The notes beneath the pieces were generated by a model. The model saw only the letters and a list, made by a program, of their open reading frames with translations. It made no database searches and had not been told where the DNA came from. Source: a phage. Taken from it: 40,233 nt of DNA. This document shows, one piece after another, positions 2,795 to 37,931 of this stretch. Positions within the stretch are counted from its first letter, which is position 1. Each line of letters opens with the position of its first letter. The position numbers and the translations under genes were made by a program. Location: the sequence record PZ445540.1; one strand, written 5' to 3'.

Positions 2795-3484
2795 ATGGGG
2801 GCCGTGATGCCTGAAATCGTAAAAACGCTGTCTTTCGACGAGACAGAAATCAAGTTCACCGGTGACGGGAAGCAGGGGATTTTCGAAGGCTATGCCTCAG
2901 TTTTCAATAACACCGATTCCGATGGCGACATCATTCTGCCCGGGGCGTTTAAGAACGCACTGGCGAACCAGACCCGCAAAGTGGCGATGTTTTTCAACCA
3001 CAAGACGTGGGAGCTGCCGGTTGGTAAATGGGACAGCCTGGCCGAAGACGAAAAAGGCCTGTATGTGCGCGGTCAACTTACCCCAGGGCACAGCGGCGCC
3101 GCCGACCTGAAAGCTGCAATGCAGCACGGTACGGTTGAGGGTATGTCGGTTGGCTTTTCCGTTGCGAAAGACGATTACACCATCATTCCAACAGGCCGCA
3201 TTTTTAAGAATATCCAGGCTCTGCGCGAAATCAGCGTCTGCACTTTCCCCGCCAACGAACAGGCTGGCATCGCAGCCATGAAAAGTGTCGATGGCATTGA
3301 AACGATTCGTGATGTGGAGAACTGGCTGAGGGATTCAGTCGGGCTCACCAAATCACAGGCAGTTGGGTTAATAGCCCGGTTTAAGTCAGCGATTCGGAGC
3401 GAGTCCGAGGGCGACGGAAACGAAGCACAAATCAACGCTCTGCTTCAGAGCATTAAATCTTTCCCTTCCAATTTAGGTAATTAA
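2795..3484 (+). CDS. prohead maturation protease (HK97-type, S78-like)
   Basis: 229 aa; N-terminal 'GYASVFNNTDSDGDIILPGAF' matches the conserved protease core of HK97 prohead proteases; sits between portal and capsid genes. Confidence 0.82.
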   Translation: MGAVMPEIVKTLSFDETEIKFTGDGKQGIFEGYASVFNNTDSDGDIILPGAFKNALANQTRKVAMFFNHKTWELPVGKWDSLAEDEKGLYVRGQLTPGHSGAADLKAAMQHGTVEGMSVGFSVAKDDYTIIPTGRIFKNIQALREISVCTFPANEQAGIAAMKSVDGIETIRDVENWLRDSVGLTKSQAVGLIARFKSAIRSESEGDGNEAQINALLQSIKSFPSNLGN

Positions 3485-28036: not shown

Positions 28037-28744
28037 TCACCCATGCTTCCTGTAGGTCTGCGGCATGCTGCCGATCACCTTTCCGAAGATGAAAATTTTG
28101 TTCATCTCTTCCTTCTCGATTGGTTCCCATGGTAGATAGGTATGGTTGTCAGAGATAACTAAGAGTTTGTCTTTCATCTTTTGTAAGCGCTTAACATGCG
28201 ATGTGTCATCGTAGATGAACGCGTATATACCGTCGCCGTCGAAATGCTGAACGCTGATATCGACGAAGAGTAAGTCCCCTGGCTCTATGGTGCCAGACAT
28301 GCTATCGCCTCGAACGTTGATGATGCGTATCTGCTCCTGTTTCCGGCCATTAAACATTTGACGGGCATCTTCAACTGAGTATTCCACGGAGCGCAGCACC
28401 TCCACGAATTCGCTGTTAATTATGCCCGGGCCAGCACTTACGGTAAGGTCGAGTACGTCAACTCTGAAGATGGCTGGATCTTTTTTGTTATTCATCGGTG
28501 GGGGTGGTTGTTGGTCGTCACCCCTCATTGGTCCAGTACCGTTTGATAGCCACTCCGAACGAACACCCAGGGCATTAGCTATTTCAACGATTTTAGTTGT
28601 GCCTCTAGCATTTCCAGATGTTATTCGCCATATGGTTGGTTGTGCCATATTCGCCGCTTTGGCTAACTGACCCTGGCTCATGCCCATCTCATGCATTGCG
28701 TAGTTAAGTCTGTCAGCTAGCGTCTTAAGTGTTCTCTCTTGCAT
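28037..28744 (-). CDS. cI: CI-type repressor (HTH + S24 LexA-like peptidase domain)
   Basis: Start at ATG 28744 with GGAGG RBS, 235 aa; N-terminal HTH ('MSQGQLAKAANMAQPTIWRI'); C-terminal 'GDSMSGTIEPGD' Ser and 'HVKRL' Lys of the autocleavage dyad. Confidence 0.85.
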   Translation of the reverse strand: MQERTLKTLADRLNYAMHEMGMSQGQLAKAANMAQPTIWRITSGNARGTTKIVEIANALGVRSEWLSNGTGPMRGDDQQPPPPMNNKKDPAIFRVDVLDLTVSAGPGIINSEFVEVLRSVEYSVEDARQMFNGRKQEQIRIINVRGDSMSGTIEPGDLLFVDISVQHFDGDGIYAFIYDDTSHVKRLQKMKDKLLVISDNHTYLPWEPIEKEEMNKIFIFGKVIGSMPQTYRKHG

Positions 28745-28782
28745 ATTTATAGCCTCCGCTATCACATTCTAGTCAAGCATGA

Positions 28783-28858: not shown

Positions 28859-29077
28859 ATGAAATCAGCAATTGAAAGAGCTATTGATGCTGCTGGAGGA
28901 GTAAATGCTCTAGCTCGCGCTATAGGTGTAAAACAACCCTCTGTCTCTCGCTGGAGAAAGGTTGGTGTTGTTGGGGTGGAACATGTGCCTGATGTTGCGG
29001 CCTTTACTGGGATTCCCGCCCATGAACTGAGACCTGACAAACCAAAATTATTCCCGCACCCGGGCAATGAGGTGTGA
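28859..29077 (+). CDS. cro: Cro-like repressor
   Basis: 72 aa; HTH 'GVNALARAIGVKQPSVSRW'; divergent from cI across the operator cluster. Confidence 0.75.
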   Translation: MKSAIERAIDAAGGVNALARAIGVKQPSVSRWRKVGVVGVEHVPDVAAFTGIPAHELRPDKPKLFPHPGNEV

Positions 29078-33003: not shown

Positions 33004-33117
33004 TGTGATCGGAACAAATAGCGACACTTTTTTGCACGTTAGTGTTGACTTTGCATAAAACTGTCCTGTATGCTTCTAATCGTGGAAGATACCGTCCAAA
33101 CGAAATTAATCATTGAA

Positions 33118-33145
33118 ACCCTGCCTCGGCGGGGTTTTTGCTTTT
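33118..33145 (+). terminator. intrinsic terminator 1 in the late leader region
   Basis: ccctgcctcggcgggg (one G-U wobble) followed by TTTTTGCTTTTC. Confidence 0.5.
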
Positions 33146-33150
33146 CTAAG

Positions 33151-33178
33151 GCTGCCAATGGGTGGCCTTTTTTGTTTC
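33151..33178 (+). terminator. terminator-like hairpin 2
   Basis: gctgccaatgggtggc (stem includes wobble pairs) followed by CTTTTTTGTTT. Confidence 0.35.
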
Positions 33179-33390
33179 CCCTCGTTCTGAGAGGACTCAT
33201 GGCGATGATGTATTGACCGCTACAATGGATTAGTCGTAACTTATTATTGTGGTGAATCCTTTCTAAGCGAAAGGGCGTTCCAGTCAACTGCTATCTGCAG
33301 GTATGCGCGCGGCTTTGCTGACTGTGGTTGAGTCACCGGGAGGCACCCGGCACCATGACAATAACAATATAAGTTTCAAATTCCTTGAGA

Positions 33391-33418
33391 GCCTGCTATA
33401 AAAAGCAGGCCTTTTTTT
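33391..33418 (+). terminator. intrinsic terminator 3
   Basis: gcctgctataaaaagcaggc followed by CTTTTTTT. Confidence 0.65.
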
Positions 33419-33575
33419 ATGGTTTTGTAATCTGCTGCTACGCTTTGAGTTGTGAGATGCGCCTACCTCTCTGGGGGTTCTCCTGAACCTATAGTGAATC
33501 AGCCCGATACTGTCTCACTCAGGTCAGTTAGCAAGACTCACGACTACCTACCTTACTTACTAATAGTCACTCATT

Positions 33576-34046: not shown

Positions 34047-34338
34047 TCCGAGTGCGATGGCAAACGCAATTATCTCTGCTGTGATCGTTATTGCACTGAT
34101 GTTCTACCAGCGCGGCGGGGCGAGACATCGCCCTCTGATATCGCTGATGGCGTATTTCACGGTGCTGGTATACGCCAGCGTCCCTTTCCGTTATTTGTTC
34201 GGCCTGTACCATGAATCCCACTGGTTTGTGGTGCTGGTGAACGTCCTGATATGCGCCGCCGTTCTCTGGGCTCGGGGAAACGTAGCACGCATCATTGACG
34301 TCCTGAGGCATTCGCATGACCAAAGACGAAATTTTTAA
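34033..34338 (+). CDS. holin-like / antiholin membrane protein
   Basis: ATG 34033 with RBS GGAGGGG, ~101 aa; 2-3 TM segments; overlaps both neighbouring genes. Confidence 0.45.
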   Translation: MVTSDPSAMANAIISAVIVIALMFYQRGGARHRPLISLMAYFTVLVYASVPFRYLFGLYHESHWFVVLVNVLICAAVLWARGNVARIIDVLRHSHDQRRNF

Positions 34339-34858
34339 TGCCATCCTCGGTAAAGAGGGCGGCTACGTTAATCACCCTGACGATAAGGGCGGTCCAACTA
34401 ACTGGGGGATCACACAAGCGGTAGCTCGCGCCCACGGATTTTTCGGGGATATGCGAAACCTGACCCGCCAGCAGGCGCTAGATATCCTGACGGCCGACTA
34501 CTGGACAGGGCCACGCTTCGACCTTGTTTCTGAGGTATCACCAGCCATCGCTGCCGAACTCTGCGACACAGGCGTAAACATGGGCCCATCAGTTCAGACC
34601 AAATGGTTTCAGCGCTGGCTGAACGTGTTCAACATTCAGGGCACGCTCTATCCCGATCTGATTGCCGATGGCTTTATCGGTCCGCGAACCATCAGCGCGT
34701 TAAAAAGCTATCTTTCCCGGCGCGGAAAAGAGGGTGAGCTGGTTATGCTTCGGGCCCTGAATTGTAGCCAGGGTCAGCGTTATCTTGAGCTGGCAGAGCA
34801 GCGTAGCGCGAACGAAACATTTGTTTATGGCTGGGTAAAGGAGCGGGTGGTTATATGA
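34316..34858 (+). CDS. endolysin (glycoside hydrolase family 108-like with peptidoglycan-binding domain)
   Basis: N-terminal 'ILGKEGGYVNHPDDKGGPTNWGIT' matches the GH108 signature; 180 aa. Confidence 0.85.
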   Translation: MTKDEIFNAILGKEGGYVNHPDDKGGPTNWGITQAVARAHGFFGDMRNLTRQQALDILTADYWTGPRFDLVSEVSPAIAAELCDTGVNMGPSVQTKWFQRWLNVFNIQGTLYPDLIADGFIGPRTISALKSYLSRRGKEGELVMLRALNCSQGQRYLELAEQRSANETFVYGWVKERVVI

Positions 34859-35124
34859 CGCTTGAGATAATTACCGGACTCGTTGTCGCGGTGTTTGCTG
34901 CTATTGCCGCCGCGTTTGGCCTGGGTCATTCACGCGGAACCAGCAAAGCGGAAGCGAAAGCCGACCAGCAGCGCACCGAAGATAACGCAGCGGCAGTGGT
35001 TGCAGCAGCAGAACGCAGGGTAGAGACAACGAAAGAGGCCAGCAATGTACAGCAAACTGTTAACCACATGCCTGATGACGATGTTGATCGCGAGCTGCGC
35101 ACAAACTGGACCCGTAAAGGTTGA
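34855..35124 (+). CDS. i-spanin (Rz-like)
   Basis: 89 aa; N-terminal TM helix then charged periplasmic region; ATGA overlap with the endolysin stop; o-spanin ORF embedded/overlapping. Confidence 0.6.
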   Translation: MTLEIITGLVVAVFAAIAAAFGLGHSRGTSKAEAKADQQRTEDNAAAVVAAAERRVETTKEASNVQQTVNHMPDDDVDRELRTNWTRKG

Positions 35125-35275
35125 GGTAGTGGACACGGCTTGCGACTGGGTTAAACCCATCTACGGAACGGATCACGACTGGGATGTGCTGGATCGCCAG
35201 ACGAAGAAAGACATCCTGGCGCATAACAAAGCGTGGCAGGCGAACTGCCAGAAAGAAACCAGAGCCTCGCAATAG
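35045..35275 (+). CDS. o-spanin (Rz1-like lipoprotein)
   Basis: 76 aa; signal peptide with lipobox LIASC; starts inside the i-spanin ORF in another frame. Confidence 0.65.
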   Translation: MYSKLLTTCLMTMLIASCAQTGPVKVEVVDTACDWVKPIYGTDHDWDVLDRQTKKDILAHNKAWQANCQKETRASQ

Positions 35276-35303
35276 CGGGGCCTTTAATTACTGAGGAAAG
35301 AGC

Positions 35304-35501
35304 ATGACTGTAGTTCTCACAGCTAAGCAAATCGAAGACCTGGCTAATTTCGCAAAAGAAGACGGCGCGCCTCAATACACCATCACCACGGGGACAATCC
35401 CGGAGTTAGAAACAGATGATGGTGAAATTATTCCTGAATACTCTGGTCTGATCGCGTATTCAGATTCACTTGAGCGTGGCGTGTTACAACTCGACGATTA
35501 A
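35304..35501 (+). CDS. hypothetical acidic protein
   Basis: 65 aa ORF; RBS GAGGAAAGAG. Confidence 0.35.
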   Translation: MTVVLTAKQIEDLANFAKEDGAPQYTITTGTIPELETDDGEIIPEYSGLIAYSDSLERGVLQLDD

Positions 35502-35543
35502 GTGGCCATTACAAAGCTCACCTGCTGGTGGGCTTGATAATGG

Positions 35544-35592
35544 TTATCCCCTCTAAGGGATAAAGCACTGAATATCCCTTCTAAAGGATAAA
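35544..35592. promoter_or_regulatory. two tandem 22-bp palindromic elements
   Basis: TTATCCCctctaaGGGATAA and ATATCCCttctaaaGGATAAAT, 27 bp centre to centre; the second ends 4 nt before ATG 35595. Confidence 0.45.
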
Positions 35593-35594
35593 TA

Positions 35595-35789
35595 ATGAAA
35601 AACATACCAATGTCCGTTCATCACGAAGGTAAAGACTGGTATCCGTTCAGTGTGAACTTCTCAGATAATGAAGGACGTCAGTTCTCTTTCACCATCTACG
35701 CCATAAGCCGCGAGCACGCCTCCTACGTTGTACAGGAGATACGGGAAACGGCAACACTCGGTGATCAGTTAGTAAGCATCACCAAATAG
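35595..35789 (+). CDS. hypothetical protein
   Basis: 64 aa ORF immediately after the tandem palindromes. Confidence 0.4.
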   Translation: MKNIPMSVHHEGKDWYPFSVNFSDNEGRQFSFTIYAISREHASYVVQEIRETATLGDQLVSITK

Positions 35790-35910
35790 ACAACTCTATG
35801 CGCATCGCACGCGCACATCTAAGAAAGTCTTTCAGCTGTGAGCCTGGGCAAACCGTTAACTTTCGGCGGCTTTGCCGTGCGACAGGCTCACGCCTAAAAG
35901 GAAATAAATC

Positions 35911-36462
35911 ATGGGTCAGAAAATCATTACGTTGTCCGGCGCTGCGACGGATGTTCTTTATGCGCTGTTTTTCCGTGGCGCGCTTCAGTCTGGTGACCTG
36001 CCAGCTAAATCTGGTGCTGCTGAGCTTCGGGAGCTGGGATTCGCTGAAACACGCCATACCGCGACGGAGTATCAAAAGGAAAATTATTTCACCTTCCTGA
36101 CTGCTGAAGGGCAGGAGTTTGCTATTAAGCACATGGTAAATACGCGCTTTGGTGTACCTACCGGTGGTTATATCGGCTCACCTGTAGATAAGCCGGGGGG
36201 AGATATCCGTTGCTGTTGCCCAATAGAAGGCATTAGCTGGGGCTGGTTTGTCGATAAATCCGGACAGGCATACATCCACAAGGCGCTGATCGGCGATGGC
36301 GTATTGTCTACGAGTTATAACGTGAAGATTAATGCTGACGAAAAAGGAAAAGCGCCAGAGACAGCCTTACAGCAGGCCATTAAAAAGGTTGTGGACGAAA
36401 CTGTGCAACAAGCAATGCAGCCAGGCGGCAAGATCTGGAATTCCTTGAAGCGTAGATTCTGA
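35911..36462 (+). CDS. hypothetical protein
   Basis: 183 aa; RBS AAGGA; 'CCCP' motif; directly upstream of the glycosyltransferase. Confidence 0.45.
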   Translation: MGQKIITLSGAATDVLYALFFRGALQSGDLPAKSGAAELRELGFAETRHTATEYQKENYFTFLTAEGQEFAIKHMVNTRFGVPTGGYIGSPVDKPGGDIRCCCPIEGISWGWFVDKSGQAYIHKALIGDGVLSTSYNVKINADEKGKAPETALQQAIKKVVDETVQQAMQPGGKIWNSLKRRF

Positions 36463-36473
36463 CGGGAGGTTTT

Positions 36474-37931
36474 ATGCAGGTCACTATTGATGGTGTCCCA
36501 TACGCTCCCGCCAGCGTCGTTTCATCACGGATCGGCATTGCCATTTCGACGCATCAGCGTGCAGACGTTTTAAAACGAGCACTCGAACAGCACATGAAGC
36601 ATCTTCCCGCCGGCGCGCTGGTGGTGGTTGTCGATGATGGTTCAAAACCTGCAGCGGTAGTTCCCCACGGCGTGCAGCTGCTTCGCCATGAAACATCACT
36701 CGGCATTGTTGCTTCGAAGAACACCAGTCTGTCAGCCTTGATGGATGCCGGGTGCGAGCATCTTTTTCTGTGGGATGATGATGCCTGGCCGATTGCTGAT
36801 AACTGGCACCTGCCTTACATCGAATCACCCGAGCCACACCTGGCTTACCAGTTTCTCGATCTTGCTGGCACGAACAAGCTGAATGACCTTTCGGTGCTTT
36901 ACCGTGACGATCAGCATGTGGCGTACACCGGGCAGCGCGGCGTGATGCTTTATTACCACCGCAGCGCCATCGAGAAGGTAGGCGGATTCGATCCGGTTTA
37001 TGGCCGGGGCATGTATGAGCACAGCGACCTCGCCTTGCGCATCCATAACGCAGGACTGACTACGTGGGCTTACGCTGATGTCCTCGGTTCAGAAAAGCTG
37101 ATTCATTCCCTTGATGAGCATGAAGCCGTAGAGCGTTCGGTACCGAAACCAGATCGACAGGCGCTGGTAGAACGTAACGTTAAAATCCATAACGAACGGC
37201 GCGATGCCGGGTTTACCGGTTCCGTGGATTATCGGCGGCAGCGCGACGTGGTTATCACTACTCTGCTGACCAGCCAGTCAGATCCGCAGCGCGGTACGAA
37301 AATGTCCGCCGCACCTGACATGCTGACCCGTTGGGCTTCCTCGCTTCGGAATTGTGGTCGTATCGCGCTGGTGGATGAACTGCAGACGGCACCGGCAGAC
37401 GTTGAGCTGTATCGCGTTCCTGACGTGAAGATGAATGTCTACTTCCGGCGATGGCTGCATATCTGGCAGCACCTGCGTGATCATCCTGAATACCGGTTCG
37501 TCTGGTGTACCGATGGTACAGATGTCGAAATGCTCCGCGCACCGTGGGAAGAAATGCAGCCCGGTACTGTTTACGTCGGTTCTGAACCGAAGACCTACGC
37601 CGACACCTGGGCAAAGCAGAATCATCCTGAGCGTATCTATCAGGAGTTCATCGAAGCGCACCGCAACGATGTGATGCTAAACGCTGGTCTGCTGGGTGGT
37701 ACCCGCGCTGATGTAATGGCGTTTGCCCACGGCATCATCCGTCTTTACTACCGGATCGAGAGTTATCGTTTCTGGAAGAAAGAACAGGCTGGCGCCGCGG
37801 TGGGGGATATGATCGCTTTTGGCATTGTTGCTAAGTCTTTTGGCGATCGCATTGTCACCGGACCGCGCATCCATACAGTGTTTAAGTCAGAAGGAATCGG
37901 TAAAGAGTACGCATGGTTCAAACATAAGTAA
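36474..37931 (+). CDS. glycosyltransferase (family 2-like GT-A N-terminal domain + unknown C-terminal domain)
   Basis: 485 aa; 'GIAISTHQR...LVVVVDDGS' nucleotide-sugar-binding motif and 'FLWDDDAWP' DxD-like motif; no TM segment. Confidence 0.7.
   Translation: MQVTIDGVPYAPASVVSSRIGIAISTHQRADVLKRALEQHMKHLPAGALVVVVDDGSKPAAVVPHGVQLLRHETSLGIVASKNTSLSALMDAGCEHLFLWDDDAWPIADNWHLPYIESPEPHLAYQFLDLAGTNKLNDLSVLYRDDQHVAYTGQRGVMLYYHRSAIEKVGGFDPVYGRGMYEHSDLALRIHNAGLTTWAYADVLGSEKLIHSLDEHEAVERSVPKPDRQALVERNVKIHNERRDAGFTGSVDYRRQRDVVITTLLTSQSDPQRGTKMSAAPDMLTRWASSLRNCGRIALVDELQTAPADVELYRVPDVKMNVYFRRWLHIWQHLRDHPEYRFVWCTDGTDVEMLRAPWEEMQPGTVYVGSEPKTYADTWAKQNHPERIYQEFIEAHRNDVMLNAGLLGGTRADVMAFAHGIIRLYYRIESYRFWKKEQAGAAVGDMIAFGIVAKSFGDRIVTGPRIHTVFKSEGIGKEYAWFKHK

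Follow-up and report, generated by a model that had tools for sequence, protein, structure and literature searches.

A tandem palindrome pair in the late region of an HK97-like lambdoid phage as a probable orphan operator of the hipBA type

The palindrome pair and its surroundings

The window, that is, the whole stretch of phage DNA analysed here, comprises 40,233 nt, and its segment 35100–36500 shows 100% identity to the HK97-like lambdoid Escherichia phage SaltyDalty (PP925825.1), whose record has 36,900 nt; identity was compared over that segment. On the plus strand, the genes follow the order Q-like antiterminator, holin, endolysin (34316–34858) and Rz-like spanin (35045–35275), the latter two belonging to the lysis cassette, and then a 65-aa ORF of unknown function (35304–35501, phrog_9518), after which two palindromes are found. 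Downstream of these lie a 64-aa ORF of unknown function (35595–35789, phrog_10509) annotated in SaltyDalty, a 183-aa ORF (35911–36462) and a glycosyltransferase gene (36474–37931, phrog_1579), all three on the plus strand, followed by two minus-strand ORFs, an HNH endonuclease gene and the terminase. This gene order places the pair in the late transcription unit, in an accessory slot with lysis genes on one side and packaging genes on the other.

Both palindromes, P1 (TTATCCCCTCTAAGGGATAA, 35544–35563) and P2 (ATATCCCTTCTAAAGGATAA, 35572–35591), are 20 bp long and match exactly the HipB-operator consensus TATCC-N8-GGATA. An 8-bp spacer (AGCACTGA, 35564–35571) sets them at a period of 28 bp, and a repeat search recovered them as two 20-nt copies with 90% identity and a start-to-start distance of 28 nt. 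The first-pass annotation had described two near-identical tandem palindromes at this place, and the observation was confirmed, with units of 20 rather than 22 bp and a period of 28 rather than 27 bp. The arm type that it had proposed, TTATCCC-N6-GGGATAA, holds for P1, whose 7-bp arms are perfect, but not for P2, whose arms reach only 5–6 bp (TATCC/GGATA). The right arm of P2 provides the Shine-Dalgarno sequence AAGGA (35584–35588) of the 64-aa ORF, and the three nucleotides ATA, not four as had been counted, separate the end of P2 from the ATG at 35595; P2 hence covers the Shine-Dalgarno region and not the start codon, which it had been said to overlap. At zero mismatches, TATCC-N8-GGATA occurs in the window at P1 and P2 only, with no further site even when one mismatch is allowed, the chance expectation from base composition being 0.037 single sites and 7e-8 tandem pairs. 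Likewise, a 20-nt degenerate consensus of both copies matches P1 and P2 only, with 0 matches expected in shuffled sequences.

The pair is immediately preceded by a stem-loop, H1 (CCATTACAAAGC...GGTGGGCTTGATAATGG, 35506–35543, plus strand), located right behind the stop codon that ends the upstream ORF. This 38-nt element, of the general form CCATTACAAAGCyCAyC-loop-GGTGGGCTTGATAATGG, follows the stop codons of diverse genes; 96 sequence variants of it were found, flanked on both sides by unrelated sequence, its carriers including HK97, HK022, HK620, ES18, P22-like and Stx phages. H1 folds as a strong RNA hairpin and covaries as such, with 96.8% of cells paired, compensatory changes in 10 of 14 pairs and none of 500 shuffles as good; on the sense strand G-U mismatches outnumber A-C ones by 85 to 13, a count biased by the fact that most copies came from an exact search with the 3' arm. 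Of 84 distinct H1 contexts, only 33 continue into the palindrome pair; the two are separable modules that often travel together. An mRNA processing or stability element and a module boundary are candidate roles for H1. In HK97 (locus L357, 1244–1440), HK022 (L359), HK620 (L367) and the P22-like loci L358, L363 and L366, a non-coding insert of ~190–290 nt separates H1 from the pair. Its junctions, GATAATG/AAACC...CGACAATG/GCTTATACC, display a short AATG repeat at both ends. It has the appearance of a small element inserted at the point where, in the window, GATAATGG meets TTATCC.

Just 5' of the 183-aa ORF lies another conserved block of non-coding sequence (GCGCATCGCACGCGCA...GTGAGCCTGGGCAAACCG...CGACAGGCTCAC, 35797–35905, plus strand). 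Its conservation is 94% in mEp213, mEp043 and mEp237, it occurs also in phi80 and ECP1, and its counterpart in HK639 is annotated 'terminator'. The block folds as a long hairpin (−40.3 kcal/mol, z = −2.9) lacking a U-tract, and may serve as a structured leader for the glycosyltransferase accessory cluster. Two further structures were observed upstream. Downstream of the Q-like gene, an Rfam match to the STnc100 sRNA (33218–33421, plus strand; 59.3 bits against a gathering threshold of 47) is surrounded by terminator-like hairpins at 33115–33169, 33391 and 33576, presumably marking the pR'-proximal short-transcript region. Where the Rz-like gene ends, the hairpin GCCTCGCAATAGCGGGGC (35264–35281, plus strand) resembles the terminator CGGCCTCGCAnnnGCGGGGCTTTTT, which in many other phages appears directly 3' of P2 and before the GCGCATCGCACGCGCA leader (loci L018, L025, L037, L068, L130 and L138).

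Distribution among phages and E. coli genomes

By blastn, the interval 35500–35592 is conserved at ~83% in 115 phage records and in 1391 of 5426 E. coli genomes, and in annotated examples (Stx2 phage 1717, ECP1, mEp213 and Fraca) the conserved block is located 3' of the lysis cassette. Intact pairs are carried by HK97, HK022, HK620, mEpX1, Gally, ECP1, mEp213, Fraca and the Stx phages 1717 and 2851. A single pair was counted at each of 115 phage loci, as in the window. A 52-mer of the HK97/1717 type was detected in 2531 of the 5426 E. coli genomes, at 3388 places in all, with a maximum of five per genome; among the matches listed these copies are unannotated, and in an O157 genome the 52-mer lies ~100 nt 3' of the lysis genes of a prophage. 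Both the pair and H1 are missing from the K-12 prophages DLP12 and Qin and from the lysis-to-cos region of lambda. As DLP12 and Qin lack the pair, the existing HipB binding data from K-12 cannot settle whether HipB occupies it.

Around 71 unique pairs, the flanking genes fall into 43 upstream and 35 downstream protein clusters, and phrog_10509, to which the 64-aa ORF belongs, is one among many unrelated genes found 3' of the pair. Some pairs occur without H1, directly after the stop codon of Rz or after an intrinsic terminator, and a terminator or one of many different genes may come next. The 48-bp pair is a portable, self-contained module of the lambdoid accessory slot, whatever its neighbours. 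In Stx2 phage 1717 (locus L003, ~2600–2800), a GC-rich segment of ~250 nt (…GCCCGACGGGGAATTCC…GTGTGCGGGGATAATC…), apparently non-coding and possibly structured, lies 3' of the pair, with an AT-rich stretch between this segment and the HNH gene.

Conserved 'boundary sequences' at the junctions of lambdoid modules were reportedly described by Clark et al. in 2001 for HK620, a phage that carries the pair. Both are short conserved non-coding blocks among mosaic, exchangeable genes; unlike such boundaries, the pair is conserved only at the protein-binding arms and in its fixed spacing, not overall, and its sequence identity with HipB operators gives it a specific candidate ligand.

Regarding the hosts, the same pair variant was recovered at 95–100% identity in 13 Salmonella, six Shigella and one Klebsiella phage records, the Salmonella phages epsilon34 (100%) and g341c being among the carriers of an intact pair. 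The Salmonella P22-like phages L, ST160 and SPN9CC retain flanks homologous to those of HK620, but only one half-site of the pair is left (TTATCCCAACAA/CCGGAGCC); this collapsed half-site (GGCTTATCCCAACAA/CCGGAGCCAACACAATG) lies ~740 nt into the respective loci. No pair was found in the 1.1–1.6-kb stretches examined from S135, Oslo, ES18 and Enterobacter phage CobraSix. A systematic inventory of the toxin-antitoxin (TA) systems of S. Typhimurium SL1344 contains no Hip module (PMC4366850). A link between an intact pair and a hipBA-positive host is suggestive, a tendency rather than a clean correlation given the phage records from Salmonella, Shigella and Klebsiella.

Agreement with hipBA operators

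TATCC-N8-GGATA is the consensus of the four operators bound by the antitoxin HipB in the hipBA promoter of E. coli, and the O1O2 oligonucleotide used in HipB binding assays (TTATCCGCTTAAGGGGATAT-TATAAGTT-TTATCCTTTAGTGAGGATAA) comprises 20+8+20 bp (PMC3376134, PMC3920265). Autoregulation of hipBA by HipB or HipA-HipB is attributed to Black 1994 and to Schumacher 2009 and 2015 in PMC3376134, PMC3920265 and PMC7758455. In K-12, the promoter is arranged as O4-8 bp-O3-19 bp-O2-8 bp-O1-20 bp-ATG(hipB), so that P1, spacer and P2 reproduce with 20+8+20 bp the geometry of both O1-O2 and O3-O4, an arrangement that would permit HipA-HipB to bind cooperatively or in higher-order assemblies. The phage pair thus shares with O1–O4 an identical consensus, the flanking and inner preferences TTATCC(C/G)C... 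and the tandem arrangement with a 28-bp period. It differs from them in consisting of two sites instead of four, in lacking both a hipB or hipA gene and an overlapping promoter, in its position inside a phage late region between lysis and packaging genes, and in adding as many as five copies to an E. coli genome.

The resemblance extends to positions that the consensus leaves free. With a weight matrix built from 195 hipB-proximal operators on their ten free positions only, P1 scored at the 94th percentile of true operators and P2 at the 62nd, scores as high being attained by 0.015% and 0.14% of random-filled sites, respectively; P1 outscored all four K-12 operators and P2 three of them. The underlying preferences for T1, C7, C/T8 and T9 are common to the phage sites (position 1, T 0.54/A 0.27; 7, C 0.71; 8, C 0.58/T 0.35; 9, T 0.61) and to the hipBA operators (T 0.62/A 0.29; C 0.53; C 0.67/T 0.31; T 0.68), and a set of sites gathered via H1 alone, blind to the palindromes, exhibited like base preferences. 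When spacers of 8 or 9 bp were allowed, every one of the 88 unique phage pairs and of the 124 hipBA-associated pairs turned out to have 8 bp; the length is fixed and the spacer sequence is not conserved. In 23 unique pairs chosen without reference to the palindromes, the arms carried 1.1–2.0 bits per position, with 13 of 20 arm positions at 2.0, and most central and spacer positions remained below 1 bit. Such arm-confined conservation is the signature of purifying selection on a protein-binding site.

In order to see how specific the tandem pattern is, TATCC-N8-GGATA-N10/11-TATCC-N8-GGATA was scanned across one genome per bacterial species (185,579 genomes, 596 Gb), a collection in which about one match would be expected by chance. 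Among the 120 tandem matches listed, a HipB homologue was present within 300 nt in 79 and HipA within 1.5 kb in 80, and the hip-associated loci include Vibrio, Halomonas, Serratia, Pantoea, Klebsiella and Escherichia. About 30% of the bacterial pairs listed (35 loci) have no detectable hip gene nearby; at least five of these are prophage regions, four with lysis-gene matches and one (L261) with an H1 variant, pair and terminator, and the others may be sites of other Xre proteins. The same scan of IMG/VR viral contigs gave 89 unique pairs in the 120 matches listed, of which 56 are preceded on the same strand by a recognisable lysis gene.

Taken together, these data suggest that the palindromes are an orphan hipBA-type operator pair, double-stranded DNA sites for host HipB alone or with HipA, a reading to which we assign a probability of roughly 0.6. 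The operator for a dimeric regulator that the first-pass annotation had envisaged is supported by sequence, by extended base preferences and by 28-bp tandem geometry, with HipB, a dimeric helix-turn-helix protein of the Xre family, as the probable regulator.

Candidate ligands and alternative explanations

If the pair is an operator, the phage itself offers no evident protein to bind it. By tblastn, K-12 HipB and HipA had no match in the window or in ~230 viral loci, and a HipB-family HMM built from 69 homologues and run against every ORF of the window recovered only the phage Cro and CI (E ~0.03–0.045). The operators of these two repressors, located in the region between cI (28037–28765) and cro (28859–29077), are of the TTGCTATC...GATAGCAA type, unrelated to the pair. 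Short tandem palindromes read by dimeric Xre/Cro-fold proteins are common to lambdoid CI/Cro operators (OR/OL) and to the pair, and HipB has this same fold (PMC3920265). The immunity operators of this phage differ from the pair in their half-site (TTGCTATC/GATAGCAA) and lie 6.7 kb away, and the pair is present in phages of many immunity types. Related half-sites are known for other Cro/CI-type repressors, such as TATCACC in lambda. Since the phage lacks HipB and HipA, its CI/Cro operators are different and the flanking genes are not conserved, a host protein is the economical candidate binder, and 5399 of 5426 complete E. coli genomes carry hipBA. We infer that host HipB would bind the pair in vivo. 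A scan for sigma-70 promoters found none at the pair. In K-12 hipBA, TTGACT abuts O2 and the −10 motif lies at the right end of O2 or in the spacer, where by eye the window reads AATGGT and TAAAGC. Because hip genes and a promoter are both missing, we refer to an orphan operator pair rather than to a hipBA promoter.

An operator of another dimeric helix-turn-helix regulator, encoded by the phage, by another prophage or by the host as an Xre protein and controlling the adjacent downstream gene, appears unlikely. Such control would accord with the fact that ~20 of the 71 unique pairs have P2 no more than 14 nt from a start codon, with the share of genomic tandem pairs listed that have no detectable hip gene, and with the presence of the pair in some Salmonella phages. 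Against it stand the many flanking clusters, among which there is no conserved neighbour to be controlled, the missing promoter, the lack of any HipB-family match besides Cro and CI, whose own operators differ, and the exact agreement of the extended motif and spacing with hipBA operators. The same observations bear on the earlier suggestion that the palindromes gate the glycosyltransferase cluster, which gains no support in that form: elsewhere at least 35 unrelated downstream families, or terminators and non-coding DNA, follow the same pair, no sigma-70 promoter is detectable at it, and the glycosyltransferase genes are set apart from the 64-aa ORF by the separate structured leader at 35797–35905.

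It is distinctly improbable that the pair is functionless, either as the relic of an old phage-borne hipBA promoter or as a recombination linker aiding mosaic exchange. The hypervariable flanks on both sides are those of a recombination junction, and some phages do without the pair with no obvious harm. Nevertheless, 88 unique variants retain both sites perfect along with the 8-bp spacer amid mostly poorly conserved central and spacer positions, which argues for selection on the binding arms and not on overall homology. Nor was a phage locus found that has the pair next to hipBA. The only case, one of the 89 unique viral pairs listed, adjoins a hipA that is 100% identical to that of E. coli over 67 aa at a contig end and is probably host flank, and no phage lysis genes were found at the hip-associated genomic loci among the matches listed.

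The proposal that the palindromes act in the late mRNA, as two hairpins or as a P1:P2 helix that sequesters the Shine-Dalgarno sequence or forms an RNase III or stability element, is hard to credit. The arms are able to pair, the minimum-free-energy fold joins the right arm of P2, with the Shine-Dalgarno sequence, to the left arm of P1, and the adjoining H1 on the same strand is a genuinely covarying hairpin. However, positions 7:14, 8:13, 9:12 and 10:11 of 129 phage sites showed no complementarity in excess of what base composition predicts (z −3.9 to −0.8), and genuine hipBA operators likewise lack covariation at the inner positions; it is the arm sequence itself that is kept, not merely the ability to pair. 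As RNA, the palindrome region has a z of only −1.9, with eight of 200 shuffles folding as well, and the two hairpins are not formed. Moreover, terminators or non-coding DNA, rather than a ribosome-binding site, come after many of the pairs, and Rfam gave nothing at the pair, either at the gathering threshold or at E up to 10. Hairpins occluding the ribosome-binding site, the second option of the first-pass annotation, are thus not supported.

Other identities were discarded: an intrinsic terminator (negative scan, no U-tract, AAGCAC or ATAATG after the palindromes), a CRISPR repeat mimic (no CRISPR-DR match at E up to 10, the resemblance to type I-E being superficial), a REP/REPIN or MITE (a single pair per locus in 115 of 115 phage loci) and DnaA boxes, to which TTATCCCCA conforms in 8 of 9 positions but with right arms and N8 spacing that fit HipB. 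Some chance single-site matches are real DnaA boxes (TGTGGATAA), and at the 3' end of H1 (TGATAATGG) IHF and Fur boxes were only partially matched by eye. NarL 7-2-7 sites, Hin/Gin crossover sites, lambda boxB and a type I-E repeat mimic we take to be misfits in spacing or sequence.

Possible functions of the pair

Were host HipB to bind the orphan operator pair, a sink or buffer for HipB and HipA would be the consequence that we favour, a speculative step beyond binding itself. Operator DNA slows the degradation of HipB by Lon in vitro, extending its half-life to >200 min (PMC3376134), and HipB on operator DNA promotes a dimerisation of HipA that occludes the kinase active sites, as reported in PMC7758455, citing Schumacher 2015. 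Each copy of the phage genome would then offer a platform for two HipB dimers with HipA, and replicating phage DNA or several prophages might shift the HipBA balance of the host. Since operator DNA protects HipB and occludes the active sites of HipA, a correctly spaced pair could hold HipB-HipA inactive and draw HipB away from the chromosomal promoter.

It is tempting, if tentative, to regard the pair as a phage DNA decoy that captures host HipB and HipA, counteracts the toxin-antitoxin system and retunes hipBA autoregulation in lysogens, a scenario that we consider possible although the odds are against it. During replication, the amplified copies might shield HipB from Lon and keep HipA dimerised, DNA-bound and inactive. 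In lysogens, as many as five pairs in an E. coli genome, compared with its four chromosomal sites, could retune the autoregulation of hipBA, and the extra operators would thereby change the frequency of persisters.

The next-best consequence of binding, equally speculative, would be a HipB-dependent roadblock before whichever accessory gene follows. This would fit with P2 often abutting a start codon, and fits less well with the missing promoter and the position inside the late operon, where a roadblock would seem costly to the phage.

Implications for lambdoid phages and E. coli persistence

A literature search linking HipB operators to phage, to lambdoid phages, to HK97/HK022 or to decoys returned, within its incomplete coverage, operator papers and nothing on phage-borne sites, and searching by sequence gave no pertinent match. 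The phage-borne orphan pair places a known type of site in a novel context. Phage nucleic-acid decoys are represented by pseudo-ToxI RNAs that mimic antitoxins and by RNA anti-CRISPR repeats, and datA is a titration site for DnaA. The shared idea is that a non-coding copy of a host recognition element titrates or redirects a host protein; the pair differs in that it would be a double-stranded DNA mimic of an antitoxin operator, its decoy role being putative, and no such case was found in the searchable literature. If the proposal is true, it would be the first example of a phage that carries the operator of an antitoxin as a stand-alone element.

HipBA is the founding persistence locus, and models of its regulation include four operators on the chromosome. 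Should HipB bind the pairs, close to half of the sequenced E. coli would harbour unannotated extra HipB sites in their prophages, the carriers including O157 strains as well as the classical phages HK97, HK022 and HK620. HipB titration, hipBA autoregulation and the frequency of persisters in natural strains would then have to be read differently, and prophage load would be a hidden variable in E. coli persistence. As far as sequence comparison can tell, the occurrence of the same 48-bp module in many lambdoid phages and in about half of the E. coli genomes suggests that the lambdoid phages of E. coli may be wired into the persistence toxin system of their host.
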